A DNA stretch of 64,000 bases from an uncultured Chloroflexia bacterium (GTDB lineage: Bacteria; Chloroflexota; Limnocylindria; Limnocylindrales; CSP1-4): the NCBI GenBank assembly GCA_963735785.1, contig CAVTMH010000002.1, positions 107,132 to 171,131 of the forward strand, read 5' to 3'. The translations under genes and the position numbers were made by a program. Shown piece after piece: positions 11,029 to 58,433 of this stretch. How positions within the stretch are numbered: position 1 is the stretch's first letter; each line of letters begins with the position of its first letter. The notes beneath the pieces are model-generated. The model saw only the letters and a program-made list of their open reading frames with translations, had not been told where the DNA came from and searched no databases.

Positions 11029-11105
11029 TGGTCGGGGCGGCCGGATTTGAACCGACGACCACCAGTCCCCCAGACTGGTGCGCTACCAGACTGCGCCACG
11101 CCCCG
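11029..11105 (-). tRNA. tRNA-Pro (anticodon GGG)
   Basis: Reverse complement folds as a canonical cloverleaf: CGGGGCG-TG-GCGC-AGTCTGGTA-GCGC-A-CCAGT-CTGGGGG-ACTGG-TGGTC-GTCGG-TTCAAAT-CCGGC-CGCCCCG-A-CCA. Seven-bp acceptor stem, TPsiC-like GTTCAAAT, encoded CCA. Confidence 0.9.
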
Positions 11106-13832: not shown

Positions 13833-14807
13833 TCAGGCTACGCCGGAGGTCGGTCGCGCGGTGCCCGGGAGAGAGGTGGTCCGACCCGCCGGTGTCGCGG
13901 CAACGGCCAGGGCTGTCCCGGCGAGCTCATTGGCCCGTGCTGCGACATCGGGCGTGCCGGCCATTTCGAGGATGTGCTGGGCGACGTCGCGCAGGTCCTC
14001 GATCGGGGTCGAGGTCCCACCGGTCACCCCGACGACGCGCGCCGTGCCGAAGACGGCGGAGTCGGTCAGGTCACGGACCCCTTCGACCTGGACGGCCGGG
14101 GTCCCGGCGATCTCGCACAACCGGGTCAGCTCCTTGGTGTTGGCGCTCGACCGGCCTCCGACCACGACCATGAGATCGACGTCCTTCGCCGCCTCCATCG
14201 TGTCCTGCTGGCGGCGGATCGTGACGGGGCAGACCGTGTTGACGATCTTGAGCTCGTGGGCGCGCCCGACCATGAACGCGGCGAGCTTCTCGAACTTCCA
14301 CGGCGGCTGGGTCGACTGGCTGATCAGTGCCATCCGCTTCTTGCGCGGGATGGCGGCCTCCCATTCCTCTTCCTCGTCGACGACGATGGCGTCGGGGGCG
14401 AACCCCAGCATGCCGACGACCTCGGCGTGCCTGGGTGTGCCCAGGAGGACGATCGTGTAGCCCTCCTCGACGAGCTTGGTCAGCTCCCGATGCTCCTGGA
14501 TGACCCACGTGCAGGTGCCGTCGATGACCTCCAGCCCGCGCGCCTCCGCCCGATCCATGACGTCAGGGCGCACGCCGTGCGCCCTGATGACGACCGCGGC
14601 GCCGTGGTCGACGTCGTCGAGAGTCTCGACCGTCTCGATACCGAGATCCTGGAGGTCCCGCACGACGCCCTCGTTGTGGACGACCTGGCCGAGGGTATGC
14701 GTCGCCTTGCCGGCGGCCGAGGCCTCCTTGGCCTTGTCGATCGCTTCTCGAACTCCGTAGCAGAACCCGGTGCGCTTCGCGATCCGGACTTCTTCGACGA
14801 TTCCCAC
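13833..14807 (-). CDS. ispH: 4-hydroxy-3-methylbut-2-enyl diphosphate reductase IspH (LytB) with ~50-aa C-terminal extension
   Basis: IspH pattern ([10 protein letters not shown], conserved Cys/His/Glu regions). GTG at 14807 (VGIVEEV..) was chosen; the 175-codon Arg-rich upstream extension of the track ORF overlaps plsC. Confidence 0.85.
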
Positions 14808-14833
14808 GCGTCGATTATCGCACGGGGCCCTGT

Positions 14834-15544
14834 TCAAGCCCCGTAGACGCCCCGTTGCCGTTCGGGGAGCAGCGCGGCGATCCGACGCATGAGGATGTCC
14901 GTGGCGTGCCCTTTGGCGTCCCCTTTCGCGACGTCGGGCGGCAGCACCTCGGCGAGGCGAAACGGGGAACCGACTCGGACCGTGACACGGCCACCGGGAC
15001 GCGGCAACAGCCGGCCGCGTGGCCAGACACGGTCGGAACCGGCGATCCCGACCGGCACGATGGGCGCCCCGGTGCGCAGCGCGAGCGAGGCGACCCCGTC
15101 CCGGCCCTCCTGCAGCACCCCGTCGCGACTGCGCGTGCCTTCTGGGAACACGAACAGCACATGACCCTCGTCGAGGATCCGCTTCGCGAGGCGGTACGCC
15201 TCGACGTCGGCCCTCGAGCGGTCGACCGGATGCACGCCGCCGTGGCTGGCCAGGAACCCGATCACGGGCCACGCGAAGAGCTCCTTCTTGCCGAGCCACT
15301 GGAGACGCCGCCCGATCCTGGGGATGAGCCACGAGCCGAGCACGACCGCGTCGAGGTTCGAGGCGTGGTTGGCGGCGATGATGACCGGACCCTCACGCGG
15401 GATCTCGTCGAGCGCCCCCTCGACCCCGACACGCGTCATCGCGCGCCCGAAGATCCGGCCGCCGAACGTGAGCACGGCGATGAGCGGCGTGATCGAGCTG
15501 TCGATGGGCGGGCGCTCGTCGCCCGCTGATCCCGGGGCGCTCAT
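14834..15544 (-). CDS. plsC: 1-acyl-sn-glycerol-3-phosphate acyltransferase (lysophospholipid acyltransferase)
   Basis: HX4D motif (NHASNLD) and FPEGTRS motif. ATGA overlap with the cmk stop. Confidence 0.8.
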   Translation of the reverse strand: MSAPGSAGDERPPIDSSITPLIAVLTFGGRIFGRAMTRVGVEGALDEIPREGPVIIAANHASNLDAVVLGSWLIPRIGRRLQWLGKKELFAWPVIGFLASHGGVHPVDRSRADVEAYRLAKRILDEGHVLFVFPEGTRSRDGVLQEGRDGVASLALRTGAPIVPVGIAGSDRVWPRGRLLPRPGGRVTVRVGSPFRLAEVLPPDVAKGDAKGHATDILMRRIAALLPERQRGVYGA

Positions 15545-50206: not shown

Positions 50207-50221
50207 CAGCCGGACGGTCAG

Positions 50222-51190
50222 CTACTCGACGGCGGTGGCGACGTCGTCCCGGGCGTTCCGGATGCCATCCCGGATCCTCGCGAGCGGCACCGTGGCGAGC
50301 GCGATCCCGCCGATGACGAGCGCGACGCCGGCGAGCTGCGCGACCGAGGGCCGCTCCCCGAGCAGCACCACGCTCAATCCCACCGTCAGGACCGGCTGGA
50401 CGAGCAGGATGATCGAGGTGACGACCGCTGGGAGCCGCGGCAGTGCGAGCGAGATGCACAGGTAGCCGATCGACTGCGACGTCACCCCCAACAACGCCAG
50501 CCAGCCAAGGCTCGCGAGCGGCGGGGCGAGATCGAGATCGCCGATGACGAGCCCGGCCATCCCCGACACGACAGCCGTGCCGATGGTCGCGATGGCGACC
50601 GGTCCGGCGGGTCGTCGCGAATCGCGGCCACCGATGCGGATCAGCAGGAGGTACGCCGAGTAGCACAACGCCGTCGCGACGCCCAGCGCCACCCCGAGGG
50701 CCGGGTTCGCTCCGTAGGCACCCGATCCGACCACGCCCGAGATCAGCACGACGCCGACCAGCACCACCGGGACGGCGATGAGCGTGGCCCGCGACGGCCG
50801 CTCCCCGAAGACCAGCCACGCGACGACGCCGACGACGAGGACCTGCAGGTTGCCGAGGACCGTCGCGAGCCCGGCGCCCACGTACTCGATGGCGTGGTGC
50901 CAGAACATGAGGTCGCCCGCGAAGAAGATGCCGGCGATGACGGCGAGCCGGCGCGCGCGTCCCGGCAGCGGCCCGTACCGCCGCCGCTCGGCCCAGGCCA
51001 CCAGCACGAGCAGGGGCAGGCCGAACACGGCCCGGAAGAGCGTCCCGGTCGATGGCGAGACGTCGGCGTAGCGGTACAGGATGCCCGAGAAGGCGATGCA
51101 CAGGGCCCCGATCAGGGCGGCCAGACGGGGCCGTCGCGCGATCGCATCGAGCGCCGGGATCCCGAGATCGGCCGCCGCGCCGGCCGTCAG
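50222..51190 (-). CDS. DMT-superfamily (EamA-type) transporter, 10 TM; start codon unresolved
   Basis: Two EamA-like halves. There is no ATG/GTG/TTG in frame near the expected N-terminus. An ATG at 51252 that overlaps the aspS stop (ATGA) opens a 21-codon ORF in the -1 frame ending at 51187. Confidence 0.6.
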   Translation of the reverse strand: MTAGAAADLGIPALDAIARRPRLAALIGALCIAFSGILYRYADVSPSTGTLFRAVFGLPLLVLVAWAERRRYGPLPGRARRLAVIAGIFFAGDLMFWHHAIEYVGAGLATVLGNLQVLVVGVVAWLVFGERPSRATLIAVPVVLVGVVLISGVVGSGAYGANPALGVALGVATALCYSAYLLLIRIGGRDSRRPAGPVAIATIGTAVVSGMAGLVIGDLDLAPPLASLGWLALLGVTSQSIGYLCISLALPRLPAVVTSIILLVQPVLTVGLSVVLLGERPSVAQLAGVALVIGGIALATVPLARIRDGIRNARDDVATAVE

Positions 51191-51248: not shown

Positions 51249-53111
51249 TCATCCTTCGATCGGCCTCGACGGCAGGCCGACGAAGCGCAGGCCGAGTTCC
51301 TCGAACTGCTCCGGCTCGGGCGCGGACGGCGCCTCCAGCATCGGGTCGCTCCCGGACTGCGTCTTGGGGAACGCCATGACCTCGCGGATGTTGGTCTGGC
51401 CCGAGAGCAGCGCCGCCCAGCGGTCGATGCCGAGCGCGATCCCGCCGTGCGGTGGTGCGCCGTACTCGAACGCGTCGAGCACCGCCCCGAATTTCTCGCG
51501 CATCCCGTCGAGCGTCTGGCCCTGGAGCAGGAAGCTCCGTTCGAGGAGGTCGCGCCGATGGATCCGGACGGACCCGCCGCCGAGCTCCCAGCCGTTGAGG
51601 GCGAGGTCGTACTGGAGGGCCCGCGCACGCCCTGCCGGATCCTCCTGTGAGGGCCGCGCGGGGTCGCCGGACGCGGTGACGAGCAGCTCCTCGTCTTCCG
51701 GGACCACGCCACTGAACGGGTTGTGGGTCGCGTCCCAGCGGCCGAGCTCCTCGTCCCACTTGTACATCGGGAAGCGGTTGACCCAGACATAGGCCAGGAC
51801 ATTCGGGTCGGCGAGCCCCAGGCGTTCGCCCAGCTCGACGCGCAGGCGACCCAGCACATCCGCGGCGACCGCCGACGTGTCGGCGACGATCAGGACGAGG
51901 TCGCCCTCCCCTGCCCCGGTCAGCTCGATGATCGAGCGCTGGCTCTCATCGGAGAGGAATTTCGCGATCGGGCTCTTGATCTCGCCCCCGGGCTCCAGGC
52001 TGAGGTAGGCGAGGCCCTTCGCGCCGAACCGTCGAGCGCGGTCGGTCAGCTCGTCGATCTCGCGGCGGGTCACCCCCGCCATCCCCGGCGCGACGATCGC
52101 CTTGACCCGGCCGCCGCCAGCCAGCGCGTCGTCGAAGACCTTGAAGCCCGAGGGGGGCGTCAGGGCGGGCGCGAGGTCGATGAGCTCCATCCCGAACCGC
52201 AGGTCTGGCTTGTCACTGCCGTATCGCTCGAGCACCTCGTCGTACGTGAAGCGCGGGAACGGGACCTGCTGCAAGGGGCGGTCCGGCGTCGTGGCGCGCG
52301 ACACCTCGATGGCCATCCGCTCGATGAACACCATCACGGACTCCTCGTCGACGAAGCTCATCTCGAGGTCGAGCTGGGTGAACTCCGGCTGGCGGTCGCC
52401 GCGCAGGTCCTCGTCGCGGTAGCACCGCGCGATCTGGAAGTAGCGATCCATGCCCGCGACCATCAGCAGCTGCTTGAGCTGCTGCGGGCTCTGCGGCAGG
52501 GCGTAGACGCTGCCCGGCTGGAGCCGCGACGGGACGATGAAGTCGCGCGCCCCCTCCGGCGTGCTCTTGATGAGCGTCGGGGTCTCCACCTCGACGAATC
52601 CGTTGGCGTGGTGGACCTCGCGGATCGCCTGGACCATCCGGCTGCGCAGCAGCAGGCGCTCGGCCATGGGCTGGCGACGGATGTCGAGGTAGCGATATCT
52701 CAGTCGCAGCCCTTCGTCGACGGGTGCGTCGGGCTCGTTGATGTAGAAGGGCGGGGTCTTCGCCTCCGACAGGATCTCGAACTCGGTCGACTGGAGCTCG
52801 ATCTCACCGGTCGGCAGTCGCGGGTTCTCGGTGCCGGGTTGCCGCTTCGCGACGGTCCCGTGGACGGCGACGACGAACTCGCCGCGGACGCGGCTCGCGA
52901 CGGCATGCGCCTCGGGGGCGTCGGCCTTGTCGACGACCACTTGCGTGATCCCGTGTCGATCACGGAGGTCGAGGAAGATCAACTGCCCGTGGTCGCGCCG
53001 GCGATGGACCCAACCGGCGAGCCGGACCGCGGATCCGGCGTCGTCGGCGCGCAACTGGCCCGCAGTGTGGGTTCGGTAGGGCGTGGCGAGGCTCGGGGTC
53101 GGGTCGGTCAT
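51249..53111 (-). CDS. aspS: Aspartate--tRNA ligase
   Basis: OB-fold anticodon-binding N-domain, class II motifs (FRNE, GGGSIRIH, GLDR). ATG 53111 (MTDPTPSLATPYRTHTAGQLR..). Confidence 0.9.
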   Translation of the reverse strand: MTDPTPSLATPYRTHTAGQLRADDAGSAVRLAGWVHRRRDHGQLIFLDLRDRHGITQVVVDKADAPEAHAVASRVRGEFVVAVHGTVAKRQPGTENPRLPTGEIELQSTEFEILSEAKTPPFYINEPDAPVDEGLRLRYRYLDIRRQPMAERLLLRSRMVQAIREVHHANGFVEVETPTLIKSTPEGARDFIVPSRLQPGSVYALPQSPQQLKQLLMVAGMDRYFQIARCYRDEDLRGDRQPEFTQLDLEMSFVDEESVMVFIERMAIEVSRATTPDRPLQQVPFPRFTYDEVLERYGSDKPDLRFGMELIDLAPALTPPSGFKVFDDALAGGGRVKAIVAPGMAGVTRREIDELTDRARRFGAKGLAYLSLEPGGEIKSPIAKFLSDESQRSIIELTGAGEGDLVLIVADTSAVAADVLGRLRVELGERLGLADPNVLAYVWVNRFPMYKWDEELGRWDATHNPFSGVVPEDEELLVTASGDPARPSQEDPAGRARALQYDLALNGWELGGGSVRIHRRDLLERSFLLQGQTLDGMREKFGAVLDAFEYGAPPHGGIALGIDRWAALLSGQTNIREVMAFPKTQSGSDPMLEAPSAPEPEQFEELGLRFVGLPSRPIEG

Positions 53112-53260
53112 GGCCGCGTCATGGTATGCGTTCCCGTGCTCCGCGCTCTGGCGACGTCCGTGGCGCTTTGCAATGCCGTCGTCAGTGGTGCAACTGTCGG
53201 TAAATCGGCGCTGCAGCCATCGACCCGCCACGATCGGGGTCACCACTCGAGGAGGTACCC

Positions 53261-53344
53261 GTGGGCAAGTTCGTGTTGGGCTTCGTCGTCGCGATCGTCC
53301 TGGTCCTGTTCATCGTCGCACGCTGCGTGGGCGCCATCGTCTGA
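53261..53344 (+). CDS. 27-aa hydrophobic peptide (VGKFVLGFVVAIVLVLFIVARCVGAIV*)
   Basis: GTG preceded by GAGGAGG (53249-53255) at ideal 5-nt spacing. Single TM-like helix. Sits 41 nt upstream of the hydrolase start. Confidence 0.35.
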   Translation: MGKFVLGFVVAIVLVLFIVARCVGAIV

Positions 53345-53385
53345 CCATCCCCGGGTATCGTGGCGGAAACAGATCGGAGGGCCGA

Positions 53386-54213
53386 TTGCCGACGTTCGAC
53401 GGGTCGCAGACCTCCATTCCGTTCCAGCAGACGGGTGCTGGGCCCGACATCGTGTGGGTCGCGGGCGGAGGCGACGCCGGCGATTCCTGGGACGGTTACC
53501 AGATCCCGCACTTTCGGCGGATGTTCCGGAATACGACCTTCACGAACCGGGGTATCTGGCCCGCCGTGTGTACCCAGGCACTGCCATGGACGATCGCCGA
53601 CATGGCACGCGATACCGCCGAGCTGATCGAGGGCGTCTGCAAGCCGCCAGTCGTGGTGGTTGGGCTGTCCATGGGGGCCCTGATCACCCAGCAGTTGGCC
53701 GTCGACTTCCCCGAGCTCGTGCGAGTCGGCATTTCGATGGGGGGCGGAGCCCGTTCGCACGGCTGGATCCGCTACTACATGCAGGCGGAGATCGACTACC
53801 GCGTGTCCGGGGGCGAACTCGATGGCGAGATGGCCGTCGCCCACTACGCCGCGAGCCTGTACCCGGCCCGCGTCCTCGGTGACCCGGTCCTGTGGCCGAG
53901 GATCCGCGATGAGCTCATGGCCTGGATCGTCTCGGGCGTCAACGAGGAATCACTGATCGGCCAATGGGATGCGTGCCAGACCTTCGACCTGACCGAGCGA
54001 CTTCCGACCTGCACGGTCCCGCTGCATGTCTTTGCCTTCTCAGAAGACGTGCAGGCGCCGCCGCAATTCGGCCAGGAGGTCGCCGACCTCTGCCCGACCT
54101 CGACGTTTCACTTGTTCGAAGGCATGGGGCACTGCTCGATCTACGGGCATGAGCACGACCGCTTGAACGAGGAGATCGAAGCCATCGCGCGTCGGTACGC
54201 GGATCCGTCCTGA
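53386..54213 (+). CDS. Alpha/beta-hydrolase fold protein
   Basis: GLSMG nucleophile-elbow (GxSxG) with a later Asp/His. TTG 53386 with GGAGGG RBS; 275 aa. The track start at 53083 was rejected. Confidence 0.65.
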   Translation: MPTFDGSQTSIPFQQTGAGPDIVWVAGGGDAGDSWDGYQIPHFRRMFRNTTFTNRGIWPAVCTQALPWTIADMARDTAELIEGVCKPPVVVVGLSMGALITQQLAVDFPELVRVGISMGGGARSHGWIRYYMQAEIDYRVSGGELDGEMAVAHYAASLYPARVLGDPVLWPRIRDELMAWIVSGVNEESLIGQWDACQTFDLTERLPTCTVPLHVFAFSEDVQAPPQFGQEVADLCPTSTFHLFEGMGHCSIYGHEHDRLNEEIEAIARRYADPS

Positions 54214-54224
54214 CTCGGGCAGGC

Positions 54225-55514
54225 TCACGTGCCGTGACGGTGCGCGGCGTGGGCCCGCGCGATCTCGCGCCCGACATCGACCATCGGAACGACCTTCTGG
54301 GTCCCGGCCGGCAGGTCACGGAGCTGGACATCCCCATCGACGAGCTCGTCGCCGACGATGACCGCGAAGTGGGCGTGCTCCTTGGCCGCCGATTCGAGCT
54401 GCTTGCCGAGCTTTCGTCGTCCGAGCTCCGCCCGCGCCGTCAGTCCGGCACCGCGGAGTTCCGTGGCGACCCGCAGCCGGCTCACGGTGTCGTCAGGATC
54501 CGCACCGACCACGACCACGGTCGGCGGGGCCTCCGCCGCGACGTCGCCGCCCTGCTCATCGAGCGCCAGGAACAGGCGGTCGAGCCCGACCCCGAACCCG
54601 ATGCCCGGCGTCGGGCGTCCACCCAGCAGCTCGACGAGCCCGTCGTATCGGCCGCCCCCACCGAGCGCCTGCTGCTGGCCCTCACGGCCGGAGATGTAGA
54701 ACTCGAACGCGGTGCGGGTGTAGTAGTCGAGGCCTCGAACGAGGCCGGGCTCCGGCCGGTACGGCACCCCGAGGCCATCCAGATGGGCGCGCACGCTCGC
54801 GAAGTGGTCCGCACAGGCATCGCACAGTCGGTCCGTGATATGCGGCGCACCTGCATTGATGGCCGTCATCGCCGGGTCCCTCGAGTCGAGCAGGCGCAGG
54901 ACGTTGCGTTCGAGCCGGTCACGCTCGAGGGACGGCAGCTCGGACGCCTGCCCTCGGTAGTAGTCGGTCAGCGCGTCCACGTAGGCCGGGCGGCACGACG
55001 CGTCGCCGATGGAGTTGACGAGGACCTCGACGCCGGTCAGGCCGGCATCCGCGTAGAACCTCGTCCCGAGCTCGATGATCTCGGCATCCACGGCCGGTCC
55101 AGGGTCGCCGATCGCCTCGACGTCGAACTGCCAGAACTGCCGGTAGCGGCCCGCCTGCGGACGGTCGTAGCGGAACATCGGCCCGATCTCGTACAGCTTC
55201 ACGGGCTGTGGCCACGTCTGGAGCCCGTGCTGGACGTAGGCGCGGACGATCCCGGCGGTCGGCTCGGGGCGGAGCGACCACGATTCCGCCTCGTCGGACC
55301 GGGGCACGATCCGGAACAGCTCCTTCTCGACGATGTCCGTGACCTCACCGACGCCTCGCTCGAAGACCGCCGTCTGCTCGAACATCGGCGTCTCGATGCG
55401 GCCATAGCCGTATCGTGCGGCCAGGTCCGCGGCGAGCCGCTCCAGGCGTGTCCACGCGGCCGTGTCCGGTGGAAGTAGGTCGCGCGTGCCCCGTGGGGCC
55501 TTGAAGCTGGGCAT
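54225..55514 (-). CDS. hisS: Histidine--tRNA ligase
   Basis: N-terminus MPSFKAPRGTRDLLP.., class II motifs and C-terminal anticodon-binding domain. Confidence 0.9.
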   Translation of the reverse strand: MPSFKAPRGTRDLLPPDTAAWTRLERLAADLAARYGYGRIETPMFEQTAVFERGVGEVTDIVEKELFRIVPRSDEAESWSLRPEPTAGIVRAYVQHGLQTWPQPVKLYEIGPMFRYDRPQAGRYRQFWQFDVEAIGDPGPAVDAEIIELGTRFYADAGLTGVEVLVNSIGDASCRPAYVDALTDYYRGQASELPSLERDRLERNVLRLLDSRDPAMTAINAGAPHITDRLCDACADHFASVRAHLDGLGVPYRPEPGLVRGLDYYTRTAFEFYISGREGQQQALGGGGRYDGLVELLGGRPTPGIGFGVGLDRLFLALDEQGGDVAAEAPPTVVVVGADPDDTVSRLRVATELRGAGLTARAELGRRKLGKQLESAAKEHAHFAVIVGDELVDGDVQLRDLPAGTQKVVPMVDVGREIARAHAAHRHGT

Positions 55515-55583
55515 CGATGCGAGTCTAGGGTGTCACGCGGCGATGACGGGGACCGGGTAGCGCGAGCGCGTGGCGCGTCTGGC

Positions 55584-56042
55584 TCAAGGCTCGATCGGTC
55601 TGTCGATGCTCTCCTCGAAGTCACGCTCGATCTCGGCGTCGAGGTCGTGAAAGCCCGAAACCATCCGAACCCGCCCCTTCAGCCGACCGAACTCACGCTT
55701 CGGCGCATCCGTGACGTCATCGACAGCCCCGAGCCAATACATCACGTCGTCGGAGGGGACCCATGTTGCCCAATCGCGGAGTAGGGCCGTCGCCTCGGCG
55801 CCGACGATATCTTGCTGGCTGGGCCCGCTGCTGCCGCCACGGTAGAGGCGAAGCCGACCCTCGCTGAGCAGATCCACCACGATCCGTTCCGCAATCGCTA
55901 GGCGCTCGCTCAGTGCCGCCGACGGGTAGCGGCTGTTGGCGGAATACCAGACTTCGTGGATTCCCAACCAGTCGTCGTGAGCGTCATCGTGGATCGAAGC
56001 CTTGAACTCTTGGTAGTCCGGCGGCAAGGAATCATTGCTCAT
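55584..56042 (-). CDS. Orphan hypothetical protein (152 aa) with atypical, lower-GC composition
   Basis: About 62% GC and A/T-ending codons (AAT, GAT, TTG, CAA) versus ~72% GC and near-exclusive G/C-ending codons in neighbours. No recognisable domain. Confidence 0.55.
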   Translation of the reverse strand: MSNDSLPPDYQEFKASIHDDAHDDWLGIHEVWYSANSRYPSAALSERLAIAERIVVDLLSEGRLRLYRGGSSGPSQQDIVGAEATALLRDWATWVPSDDVMYWLGAVDDVTDAPKREFGRLKGRVRMVSGFHDLDAEIERDFEESIDRPIEP

Positions 56043-56090
56043 CGTGCACGAACCATCTCACACAGAAAGGCGCGGGCGGCATTATTGCGA

Positions 56091-56104
56091 GGCCGGATCC
56101 GGCC
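56091..56104. terminator. Self-complementary 14-mer ggccggatccggcc, 8 nt downstream of the relA stop
   Basis: Seen in sequence. Hairpin followed, in minus-strand orientation, by the A/T-richer tcgcaataat. Confidence 0.25.
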
Positions 56105-56111
56105 GGCCGCC

Positions 56112-58433
56112 TCAGCCGAGATCGCGCTGGACGTTGATGACGTCCTTGAGGTTCTCGATCCGGCCCATGACCCGGGCCAGCTGCGACACCGAGTGGACCT
56201 GCAGGGTCGCGGTCACGACGGCGGTGTGGTCCGGCGTCACGCCGACGGCCGCGGCGACGATGTTGACCTTGTTCTCGGCGACGACCTGGGTGATGTCGCT
56301 CAACAGCCCGGTCCGGTCGTAGGCCTCGACGCGGATCGCGATCGGGTAGGTCTGGGTCGCCTCGGCCTCCCACTCCACGTCGATGAGCCGGCTCACCTCC
56401 CGTTCGTTGACGACCGTCGGACAGGACTGGAGGTGGACGGTCACGCCCTTGCCGCGGGTGATGAATCCGACGATCGGGTCGCCAGGGATCGGCGAACAAC
56501 ACTTCGCGAAGCGGACGAGCAGGTCGCCCACGCCCTTGACCCGGACGCCCCCGGTCCGCGCGACCTGCTGCGGCGGCGCGACCGTCGGCAGCTGGCTCTG
56601 GCCGTCGTCGACCACGCCGAGGCGCATGACCACGGTCTGAGGGCCGACCGCCCCGTAGCCGATCGCGGCGTAGAAGTCGTCGGGCGTGTCGTAGTTGAGG
56701 TTCTTCGCCACCTCGGCGATCTTGTCGTGCCCTACGGCCGCGATCGTCGTGCGTGCCAGGCGGCGCAGCTCACGCTCGAGCGATTCCTTGCCGTGGACGA
56801 TGTTCTCGTCGCGGTCCTTGCGCTTGAACCACTGGCGGATCTTTTCGCGGGCATGGCTGGTGCGGACGACGTTGAGCCAGTCGCGGGACGGGCCGTGCTC
56901 GCCCTTCGTCGTCACGATCTCGACGATGTCGCCGTTCTTGAGGCGGTAGTCGAGCGGCACGAGCCGGTTGTTCACCTTCGCACCGATCGTCCGATGGCCG
57001 ACGTCGGTGTGGATGCGATAGGCGAAGTCGAGCGGCGTGGCGCCGGCGGGGAGGTCCTTGATGTCGCCCTTCGGCGTGAACACGAAGACCTGGTCCTGGA
57101 AGATGTCGAGCTTGATGCCCTCGACGAACTCGGTCGCGTCCGACTCGGAGACGTCGCGCTGCCAGTCCATGAGTTGGCGCAGCCAGGCGAGCTTGGCGTC
57201 GTACTCGCGATCGGACTTCGTGCCTTCCTTGTAGCGCCAGTGGGCCGCGATGCCGACTTCGGACACCTGGTGCATCTGGTGGGTCCGGATCTGGATCTCG
57301 AGCGGCTTGCCGTCGATGGCGATGACCGCCGTGTGGAGCGACTGGTAGAGGTTGTTCTTGGGGACCGCGATGTAGTCGTCGAACTGCCCAGGGATCGGCC
57401 GCCAGATGCTGTGGACGATGCCGAGCGCCGCGTAGCAGTCGCGCACGTCCTCGACGAGCAGGCGGATGGCGTAGACGTCGTAGATCTCGCCGAACTCCGC
57501 GCTCTTGCGCTGCATCTTCTTCCAGATGCTGTAGATGTGCTTGGGTCGTCCCTGCAGGTCGGCCTCGATGCCGGCCGCCTCGAGGCGCGGCTTGAGCTCC
57601 GCGATGGCGCGGTCGATGTACGACTCGCGGCCCTTGCGCCGGGTGTCGAGGAGCTTGGCCAGCTCGCGGAACCGCTCGGGCTCGAGTGCCTTGAACGCGA
57701 GGTCCTCGAGCTCCCACTTCATCTGCCAGATCCCGAGCCGCTCCGCGAGCGGCGCGTAGATCTCCATCGTCTGGCGGGCGATGCGCTGCTGCTTGTCGGA
57801 CGGCAGCCCGTAGAGGGTGCGCATGTTGTGGAGCCGGTCGGCGAGCTTGATCAGGACGACCCGGATGTCCTGGGCCATCGCCAGCAGCATCTTGCGGATG
57901 TTCTCGGCCTGCTGCTGCTCGTGGCTGTGGGTGCTGAACCGGGACAGCTTCGTCACGCCATCGACGAGCTGGGCGACCTCGGCGCCGAAGCGCTCCTCGA
58001 TGTCGGTCAGGCTGTACTCGGTGTCCTCGGGGACGTCGTGCAGGAGCGCGGCCTGGACGGCGACCGGATCGATGCCGAGCTCGGCCAGGATCTGGGCCGA
58101 CGCGATGGGGTGCGTGACGTACGTCTCCCCGGTCGCCCGGCGCTGGCCGGCATGGGCTTCGACCGCCAGATCGAACGCCCCGTCGACGACCGCCAGGTCA
58201 GTGGTCTGGTGATGCTCCGCGATCGAGGCCTTGAGCGCGTTGCGCAGGACCTCGAGATCGACCTTGCCACCTGGCGACGCGCTCGACAGGGACTGGCTCC
58301 GGCGCGGGCCACGGCGCGTCGTCGACGTCGCTCGCGCGGGCTTCTCCGCGACGACAGCGGGCGTCTCAACGGCGGCCGGCTTCTCGACGACAGCCGGCTT
58401 CCGGGTCTTGGAACGTGGCGAGGTGGCGGCCAT
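56112..58433 (-). CDS. relA: Bifunctional (p)ppGpp synthetase/hydrolase RelA/SpoT
   Basis: HD hydrolase domain (HD..), synthetase domain, and TGS and ACT domains. ATG 58433 (MAATSPRSKTRKPAV..) was chosen over the upstream track start. Confidence 0.9.
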   Translation of the reverse strand: MAATSPRSKTRKPAVVEKPAAVETPAVVAEKPARATSTTRRGPRRSQSLSSASPGGKVDLEVLRNALKASIAEHHQTTDLAVVDGAFDLAVEAHAGQRRATGETYVTHPIASAQILAELGIDPVAVQAALLHDVPEDTEYSLTDIEERFGAEVAQLVDGVTKLSRFSTHSHEQQQAENIRKMLLAMAQDIRVVLIKLADRLHNMRTLYGLPSDKQQRIARQTMEIYAPLAERLGIWQMKWELEDLAFKALEPERFRELAKLLDTRRKGRESYIDRAIAELKPRLEAAGIEADLQGRPKHIYSIWKKMQRKSAEFGEIYDVYAIRLLVEDVRDCYAALGIVHSIWRPIPGQFDDYIAVPKNNLYQSLHTAVIAIDGKPLEIQIRTHQMHQVSEVGIAAHWRYKEGTKSDREYDAKLAWLRQLMDWQRDVSESDATEFVEGIKLDIFQDQVFVFTPKGDIKDLPAGATPLDFAYRIHTDVGHRTIGAKVNNRLVPLDYRLKNGDIVEIVTTKGEHGPSRDWLNVVRTSHAREKIRQWFKRKDRDENIVHGKESLERELRRLARTTIAAVGHDKIAEVAKNLNYDTPDDFYAAIGYGAVGPQTVVMRLGVVDDGQSQLPTVAPPQQVARTGGVRVKGVGDLLVRFAKCCSPIPGDPIVGFITRGKGVTVHLQSCPTVVNEREVSRLIDVEWEAEATQTYPIAIRVEAYDRTGLLSDITQVVAENKVNIVAAAVGVTPDHTAVVTATLQVHSVSQLARVMGRIENLKDVINVQRDLG

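Follow-up and report, generated by a model that had tools for sequence, protein, structure and literature searches.

What kind of gene is it that has the composition of foreign DNA, belongs to no known family and sits between two core housekeeping genes, and how did it get there? We encountered it in an uncultured Chloroflexia bacterium (GTDB lineage Bacteria; Chloroflexota; Limnocylindria; Limnocylindrales; CSP1-4), in a stretch of 64,000 nucleotides that we call the window (GenBank assembly GCA_963735785.1, contig CAVTMH010000002.1, positions 107,132 to 171,131 of the forward strand). The open reading frame (ORF) in question, ORF152, starts with ATG, encodes 152 amino acids and occupies 55584..56042 on the minus strand. 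The original prediction, made from the letters alone, placed it by itself between hisS and relA, and this is correct: it is separated from each neighbor by a gap of 69 nt, all three genes lie on the minus strand, and the order of transcription is relA, ORF152, hisS. The same prediction took it for a single foreign gene. Instead, as we describe here, ORF152 is a chimera formed in situ at a decayed phd-vapC toxin-antitoxin (TA) locus that is native to this site in the clade.

The evidence for a chimera came from homology. Searching 5.8 billion protein clusters yielded no more than seven relatives of ORF152, and these divide the query into two parts. Six proteins of 107 to 112 amino acids (P0002 to P0007) cover residues 1 to ~110 at 46 to 56% identity and then end; even the nearest homologue of the N-terminal part is thus only 56% identical. 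The seventh, P0008, is an 85-residue PF02604 Phd/YefM antitoxin and covers residues ~116 to 152 at 76% identity. Among all these clusters the complete chimera is a single sequence from one contig, and a lookup of the exact protein on the recorded contigs gave no entry. ORF152 has no match in the profile libraries of Pfam (even at E≤1), NCBIfam, PADLOC or PHROG. The earlier statement that it lacks a recognizable domain therefore holds for profile libraries but not for the C-terminal 38 amino acids, which are recognizable as a Phd/YefM tail; the suggestion of a small defense gene finds no evidence in PADLOC.

To place the two parts on the chromosome, we used a hisS-based scan with one genome per species, which gave 80 related loci (Limnocylindria, Chloroflexota); 70 species could be scored for the relA-hisS spacer. 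The nearest relative, L006, is a sister metagenome-assembled genome (MAG) whose flanking DNA is 94 to 96% identical to that of the window (relA, 95.9%; hisS, 93.7%). Its relA-hisS gap of 724 nt contains, in order, 80 nt, phd (84 amino acids, PF02604), vapC (124 amino acids, PIN domain, PF01850) and 18 nt, with phd and vapC overlapping by 4 nt and vapC starting at L006 position 5608. Window positions 56300 to 56099, the 3′ end of relA plus 13 nt, match L006 5088 to 5289 at 98%. From there on the window carries a foreign insert of ~392 bp (55707..56098, minus strand, 62.2% GC), consisting of a 56-nt 5′ leader and codons 1 to 112 of ORF152. It takes the place of the relA-phd spacer and of phd codons 1 to ~41, the PF02604 part. 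Neither the insert nor the N-terminal part of ORF152 is present at any of the 80 related loci, the sister L006 included.

Past the insert, the reading frame runs on into the resident antitoxin gene. A phd/yefM relic, codons ~42 to 84 and the stop, forms the C terminus of ORF152 in frame (55584..55706, minus strand), as tblastn, DNA identity and invariant residues agree. The Phd-derived part starts near codon 113 (…DAPKREFGRLKG…) and corresponds to Phd residues 42 to 84; the peptide over the junction reads …VDDVTDAPKREFGR…. With L006 Phd residues 42 to 84 as the query, tblastn matched window positions 55715 to 55587 at 60% identity (E = 3e-14). These last ~40 residues are orthologous to the antitoxin tail of the site, with 60 to 76% identity in protein and 81 to 84% in DNA, the latter relative to L006 and L002. 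Every position that is invariant among 12 orthologous Phd tails (F, G, G, F, F, P) is retained. In the AlphaFold2 (AF2) model of full-length ORF152, the N-terminal domain stays folded, residues 109 to 145 have a pLDDT below 50, and a single helix spans residues 132 to 146; this predicted behavior is what would be expected of a disordered antitoxin tail.

Of the toxin gene, only its ends are left. Alignment to L006 revealed ~22 nt of the vapC 5′ end at 55562..55583 (minus strand) and ~32 nt of its 3′ end, the last ~10 codons and the stop, at 55533..55564 (minus strand); VapC residues 115 to 124 match window positions 55565 to 55536 at 90% by tblastn. Next comes the native 18-nt vapC-hisS spacer (55515..55532, minus strand), which lies directly 5′ of the hisS start codon and is conserved in L006, L007, L009 and L011. 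Two L006 alignments adjoin here: window positions 55641 to 55562 match L006 5554 to 5633 at 81% (the last 58 nt of phd and the first ~22 nt of vapC), and 55564 to 55404 match L006 5951 to 6111 at 89% (the last ~32 nt of vapC, the 18-nt spacer and the 5′ end of hisS). Therefore, vapC lost its central 317 bp (L006 5634 to 5950). The vapC remnants flank the ORF152 tail in native order and at native spacing to hisS, and there is no other Phd or PIN/vapC match in the 64-kb window. ORF152 thus differs from a Phd/YefM-VapC system: its N-terminal domain and promoter have been replaced and the PIN gene has lost its center, so that there is no TA module. Since the PF02604 match of both L006 Phd and P0008 falls on residues 1 to 43, the region replaced in ORF152, and the toxin partner is missing as well, ORF152 is not a member of the Phd/YefM family.

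How usual is a TA cassette at this site? A phd-vapC pair lies directly upstream of hisS in 12 of the 70 scorable species (L006 and at least 11 others). In 20 of the 70, relA and hisS are less than 100 bp apart, with spacers of 9 to 40 nt in relatives. The remaining species hold other cargo of 0.3 to 4 kb, including a membrane protein, a sulfatase, and an MFS transporter with MerR and cold-shock genes. The original prediction had asked whether relatives have hisS directly adjacent to relA, and the answer is mixed: many do, while others hold phd-vapC or other cargo. The vapC alleles do not follow hisS (L009 has 91% identity in hisS and 49% in VapC; L030 has 79% in hisS and 82% in VapC), and this discordance indicates cassette exchange; the comparison suggests swapping by recombination in the flanks. 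These sequences show the relA-hisS spacer of Limnocylindria to be a cargo hotspot in which TA cassettes were repeatedly gained, swapped and lost.

Some relatives show other outcomes at this spacer. The "empty" spacers of 37 to 42 nt in L007 (5958 to 6000) and L011 (~1075 to 1112) retain the last ~25 nt of vapC, and both lineages thus lost the cassette secondarily. No vapC remnant was found in the 12- to 13-nt spacers of L012 and L029. The contigs that encode P0008, L002 to L005, are syntenic with the window, with the relA 3′ end followed by phd and then hisS. An intact 85-residue Phd is encoded there (L002 464 to 2020; also L003 to L005), and vapC is gone. On the 3′ side of phd these contigs have a duplicated hisS 5′ fragment (…MPTVEPPRGTRDLL…), a Septum_form gene on the opposite strand and the real hisS. 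This arrangement is another independent rearrangement or decay of the relA-hisS TA locus.

We then compared the composition of ORF152 with that of the 38 other ORFs in the window. GC content is 0.625 for ORF152 against 0.708 ± 0.023 (z = −3.7), GC at third codon positions (GC3) is 0.765 against 0.890 ± 0.033 (z = −3.8), and the leave-one-out codon adaptation index (CAI) is 0.50 against 0.726 ± 0.058 (z = −3.9). GC at the three codon positions is 0.667/0.444/0.765. ORF152 ranks at the bottom of all 39 ORFs for GC and CAI, and none of 202 size-matched pieces of the other window genes is as GC poor. The predicted outlier is therefore real (z about −3.8), even if its description as using A/T-ending codons was overstated: the A/T-ending share is about doubled (23%, versus ~11% in the neighbors), but 117 of the 152 codons (77%) end in G or C. 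The spacer on the relA side, said to be lower in GC, has 68% GC, barely under relA. Taken by itself, the N-terminal part has values close to those of the whole ORF (GC, 62.8%; CAI, 0.50). The Phd tail is likewise GC poor (62.6%), and intact TA cassettes of relatives have 61 to 67% GC, versus 68 to 71% for their loci. An apparent second outlier in the window, the ORF at 13833 to 15332 (minus strand; GC3, 0.764; CAI, 0.53), was rejected as foreign DNA: it is an overextended ispH/LytB frame whose Pfam match begins at residue 182.

What, then, is the foreign N-terminal domain? A family profile search of 1.84 billion representatives (E < 1e-3) gave 255 cluster representatives, mostly stand-alone proteins of 100 to 125 amino acids. 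None of 73 members examined has a Pfam match at E≤0.01. A second, word-indexed search with the family profile added little, and a metagenome locus scan with a narrow family alignment gave 3 short loci only. One candidate member, P0065 (1157 amino acids, 15 "stretches"), was rejected as an Ig-repeat false positive. The proteins are acidic, with a median isoelectric point (pI) of 4.4 and a pI below 6 in 96% of the small members, and have ~5 tryptophans each; the N-terminal domain of ORF152 has a pI of 4.3. It extends from the family start codon through the last conserved strand and keeps all family-invariant residues. Its AF2 model (pLDDT, 85.6; pTM, 0.79) has a winged-helix topology, and the top Foldseek match is PDB entry 2O5H (probability, 0.96; TM, 0.52 to 0.60; E = 0.1). 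This structure is Imm-NMB0513, a Neisseria winged helix-turn-helix immunity protein of polymorphic toxin systems with conserved tryptophans (PMC3482391). A profile search of PDB sequences did not recover 2O5H at E≤1.

About 12 genomic contexts of family members were seen. One relative is in the cargo of an element with an integrase, a D5 primase and an HTH_17 (excisionase) gene, and another adjoins an integrase fragment. One lies next to a gene for DUF4279, known as the immunity family FdL-Imm5 (PMC9424270). A relative of 107 amino acids is part of a same-strand array, ComJ(weak)-X-107aa-DUF2625-Imm33, and another belongs to a row of small ORFs that all lie on one strand. P0026 adjoins a divergent MazE-PIN pair, plus an upstream ORF of 87 amino acids, in an islet between fatty acid and aromatic catabolism genes. 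This islet was seen in L096 (5579 to 7354), L097 (3528 to 7520) and L098 (2837 to 4612); L097 has four extra small genes, and the islet is therefore strain variable. Some relatives are solitary among ordinary genes. By analogy, these contexts may fit the pattern of heterogeneous polyimmunity loci and orphan immunity genes (PMC3482391). Horizontal acquisition, as originally proposed, is supported for residues 1 to 112 by their atypical composition, their absence from the 80 loci and the presence of homologues in an integrative element and variable islets. The guess of an orphan immunity or antitoxin-type protein also came close, since the tail is the toxin-binding tail of Phd/YefM and the N-terminal part resembles immunity proteins of polymorphic toxin systems.

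Comparison with known systems shows where the resemblance ends. With Imm-NMB0513/DUF596 (2O5H, MafB-type systems), the N-terminal domain family shares a small stand-alone form of ~110 to 130 amino acids, the winged-helix fold (predicted for this domain), conserved tryptophans and relatives beside other immunity genes. It differs in having no detectable sequence similarity, in coming from another phylum and in the lack of an adjacent toxin gene in the members examined; judged by sequence, ORF152 is not a member of DUF596. Like orphan immunity and polyimmunity proteins (Zhang et al. 2012, PMC3482391), the N-terminal domain is solitary, small, acidic, sporadic and horizontally acquired, and some of its relatives share same-strand arrays with genes for Imm33, ComJ-like proteins and DUF4279 and lie near recombinases. 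ORF152 also resembles polyimmunity proteins in fusing two unrelated antidote modules. Unlike them, it has the tail of a type II antitoxin, not a further immunity domain, as its second module, and the two were fused in situ within a housekeeping operon instead of a polyimmunity locus. We suggest that ORF152 would work most like an orphan immunity gene, with an architecture reminiscent of polyimmunity fusions. PadR- and MarR-type winged-helix regulators are a poorer comparison: with its median pI of 4.4 and no sequence match to a helix-turn-helix family, the N-terminal domain family is unlikely to bind DNA.

The explanation that we favor, and hold to be probable, is that ORF152 is an in situ chimera at a decaying type II TA locus, with an N-terminal domain that is probably an orphan immunity-type factor and a Phd tail that is a relic. 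Its origin is well supported; for its function we argue from likeness. The data show the breakpoints, the chimeric build, the foreign composition, the synteny across the clade and the predicted fold; the immunity function, the expression and an idle tail are deductions. A foreign segment of ~392 bp replaced the phd promoter region together with the DNA-binding and dimerization domain of Phd, and a 317-bp deletion destroyed vapC. The segment carried a complete small gene for an acidic, Trp-rich protein of ~110 residues with a predicted winged helix. Its stop codon was lost at the junction, so that the frame continues into the last ~40 phd codons. The product, if made, would consist of an N-terminal winged-helix domain and a disordered former antitoxin tail. 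Transcription is probably by read-through within the relA-hisS unit. We infer this from the common strand, the short gaps, the lack of a terminator and the distance of 9 to 40 nt between relA and hisS in relatives. Activity most likely resides in the N-terminal domain, which, like its stand-alone relatives, would be an immunity-type factor that binds an incoming polymorphic toxin and so neutralizes it. As for the tail, with no partner in cis, it is most likely a relic.

Several observations weigh against this explanation. The scan of 55300 to 56400 that detected no terminator-like site detected no promoter-like one either, and no obvious Shine-Dalgarno (SD) sequence was seen for ORF152. No sequence-level link of the family to DUF596 or to any Imm family was found. 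In the contexts examined, no family member lies next to a recognizable toxin gene, and the immunity assignment is therefore one that we infer. Several metagenomic members look frameshifted, so that many copies may be decaying: P0018, P0019, P0020, P0027, P0063, P0072 and P0078 have Arg/Pro-rich nonsense C termini, and they are either decaying pseudogenes or products of indel errors in long-read assemblies. Selection on the chimera is not measurable because only one sequence exists. Finally, the window probably comes from a MAG, in which a local assembly chimera is conceivable.

The alternative that survives best, while still unlikely, takes ORF152 for a pseudogene-like scar, an untranslated and unselected frame that remained open by accident where illegitimate recombination and deletion had hit a dead TA locus. 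The missing promoter and SD-like signals are in line with this, as are the disruption of both TA genes and the restriction of ORF152 to one genome. Many metagenomic members of the family are themselves frameshifted, and the unameliorated composition points to a recent event. On the other hand, a complete N-terminal domain with all family-invariant residues and a confident fold prediction is not what a scar leads one to expect, and transcription is likely, since ORF152 lies within a probably cotranscribed, essential relA-hisS unit.

Next in standing, and doubtful, is the idea that the N-terminal domain is some other accessory protein of mobile elements: an acidic DNA mimic, an anti-defense protein or a small winged-helix regulator. 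Strong acidity is typical of DNA mimics, and one homologue is found in the cargo of the integrase/primase element. The same acidity across the family speaks against direct DNA binding, and the neighbors of its members include named immunity families. There is no meaningful PHROG hit. The N-terminal domain had no tblastn match in 50,697 phage and 72,556 plasmid records and none in a scan of IMG/VR, so a phage or plasmid origin is unsupported.

A third, improbable possibility is a functional domain-swapped or bivalent antidote, in which the Phd tail neutralizes a VapC encoded in trans, by a paralogue or an incoming element, and the N-terminal domain takes over the place of the DNA-binding domain and contributes a second neutralizing specificity, much as polyimmunity proteins do. 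Modular exchange of N- and C-terminal parts is established for type II antitoxins. Here the tail is intact, with its invariant residues kept; its predicted disorder and single helix are what a toxin-binding tail should show; and the fusion keeps the frame precisely where the N-terminal domain ends. Proteins in which unrelated immunity domains are fused are a known architecture (PMC3482391). Yet the cognate vapC has been deleted in cis, and the 64-kb window contains no phd or vapC paralogue. Nor does any other, longer family member have an antitoxin-like tail, most of these being frameshift products (Arg rich) and the others having unrelated extensions. Forty GC-rich codons could easily stay in frame neutrally, and the TA locus is decaying independently in L007/L011 and in L002 to L005. 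We give a still smaller chance to the full form of this idea, that ORF152 is a working bivalent antidote made in situ and expressed from the relA-hisS unit, guarding against both a polymorphic toxin and a VapC in trans. An assembly artifact, in which a chimeric join was made in a metagenome-assembled contig, is very improbable: the relatives are all MAGs and the exact protein is on a single contig, but colinear syntenic sequence lies on both sides of the insert within 600 bp, an uninterrupted frame across the junction joins two real protein homologies, and it is rare for an assembler to set a foreign piece of 392 bp between flanks that are homologous.

A perfect 14-nt palindrome, GGCCGGATCCGGCC, had been pointed out between ORF152 and relA. 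It is indeed present at 56091..56104, 7 nt 3′ of the relA stop codon, straddling the left breakpoint of the insert, and the homology to L006 stops within it. Its significance did not hold up: perfect palindromes of 14 nt occur 17 times in the window, where first-order Markov simulations give 14.9 ± 4.4, and this one has no loop and no T-run. Given this chance-level frequency, we rejected it as a terminator or recombination site, and a role is not demonstrable.

The surroundings are those of a housekeeping region. Upstream of ORF152 is the gene for a bifunctional RelA/SpoT (Rel) protein with HD_4, RelA_SpoT, TGS and ACT domains (56112..~58400, minus strand); the listed ORF extends to 58685, and the true start is probably internal. 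Downstream is hisS, for histidyl-tRNA synthetase (54225..55514, minus strand); aspS lies farther on, and between the two is a plus-strand alpha/beta-hydrolase gene. The rest of the window contains core genes such as murJ, a femAB-like gene, a Mur ligase gene, typA, mnmA, alaS and ispH. An Rfam scan of 53000 to 57000 (E≤1) had no match, hence no T-box or other leader in this region, and a tRNA-targeted island was rejected, the sole tRNA of the window being distant, at 11029. The hydrolase gene (Abhydrolase_6) is on a segment of 872 bp (53353 to 54224; GC, ~65%; GC3, 0.78 to 0.85) that exactly fills the interval from the hisS stop to the aspS start. L006 and all 80 loci lack this segment, which makes it a second small insertion of foreign DNA next to hisS. 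Downstream of aspS, at window positions 50220 to 50222, ~1 kb of L006 (10398 to 11422) is missing, an indel between genomes that are ~95% identical.

The processes that this locus combines, TA decay, cassette hotspots and gene fusion, are familiar. What is new is the fusion of an immunity-like domain with an antitoxin tail within a stringent-response/tRNA-synthetase unit, together with an unnamed family that has no Pfam model. An apparent orphan foreign gene becomes a dated, base-resolved snapshot of a TA cassette dying in three steps, in which the toxin was deleted, foreign DNA took the place of the antitoxin head and genes were fused by accident. As a by-product, the analysis brings together a family of small, acidic proteins with a winged helix (~255 representatives) resembling immunity proteins of polymorphic toxin systems. 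If the fusion is nonfunctional, it is still a useful warning: an outlier in composition between core genes need not be an intact import but can be a chimera in which foreign DNA is joined to native relics. If it is functional, antitoxin tails and immunity domains can recombine into new antidotes, and ORF152 would be a simple construct with which to study the neutralization of VapC toxins in trans. Should the bivalent interpretation prove true, it would provide a natural example of immunity domains and antitoxin tails being shuffled across two conflict systems.

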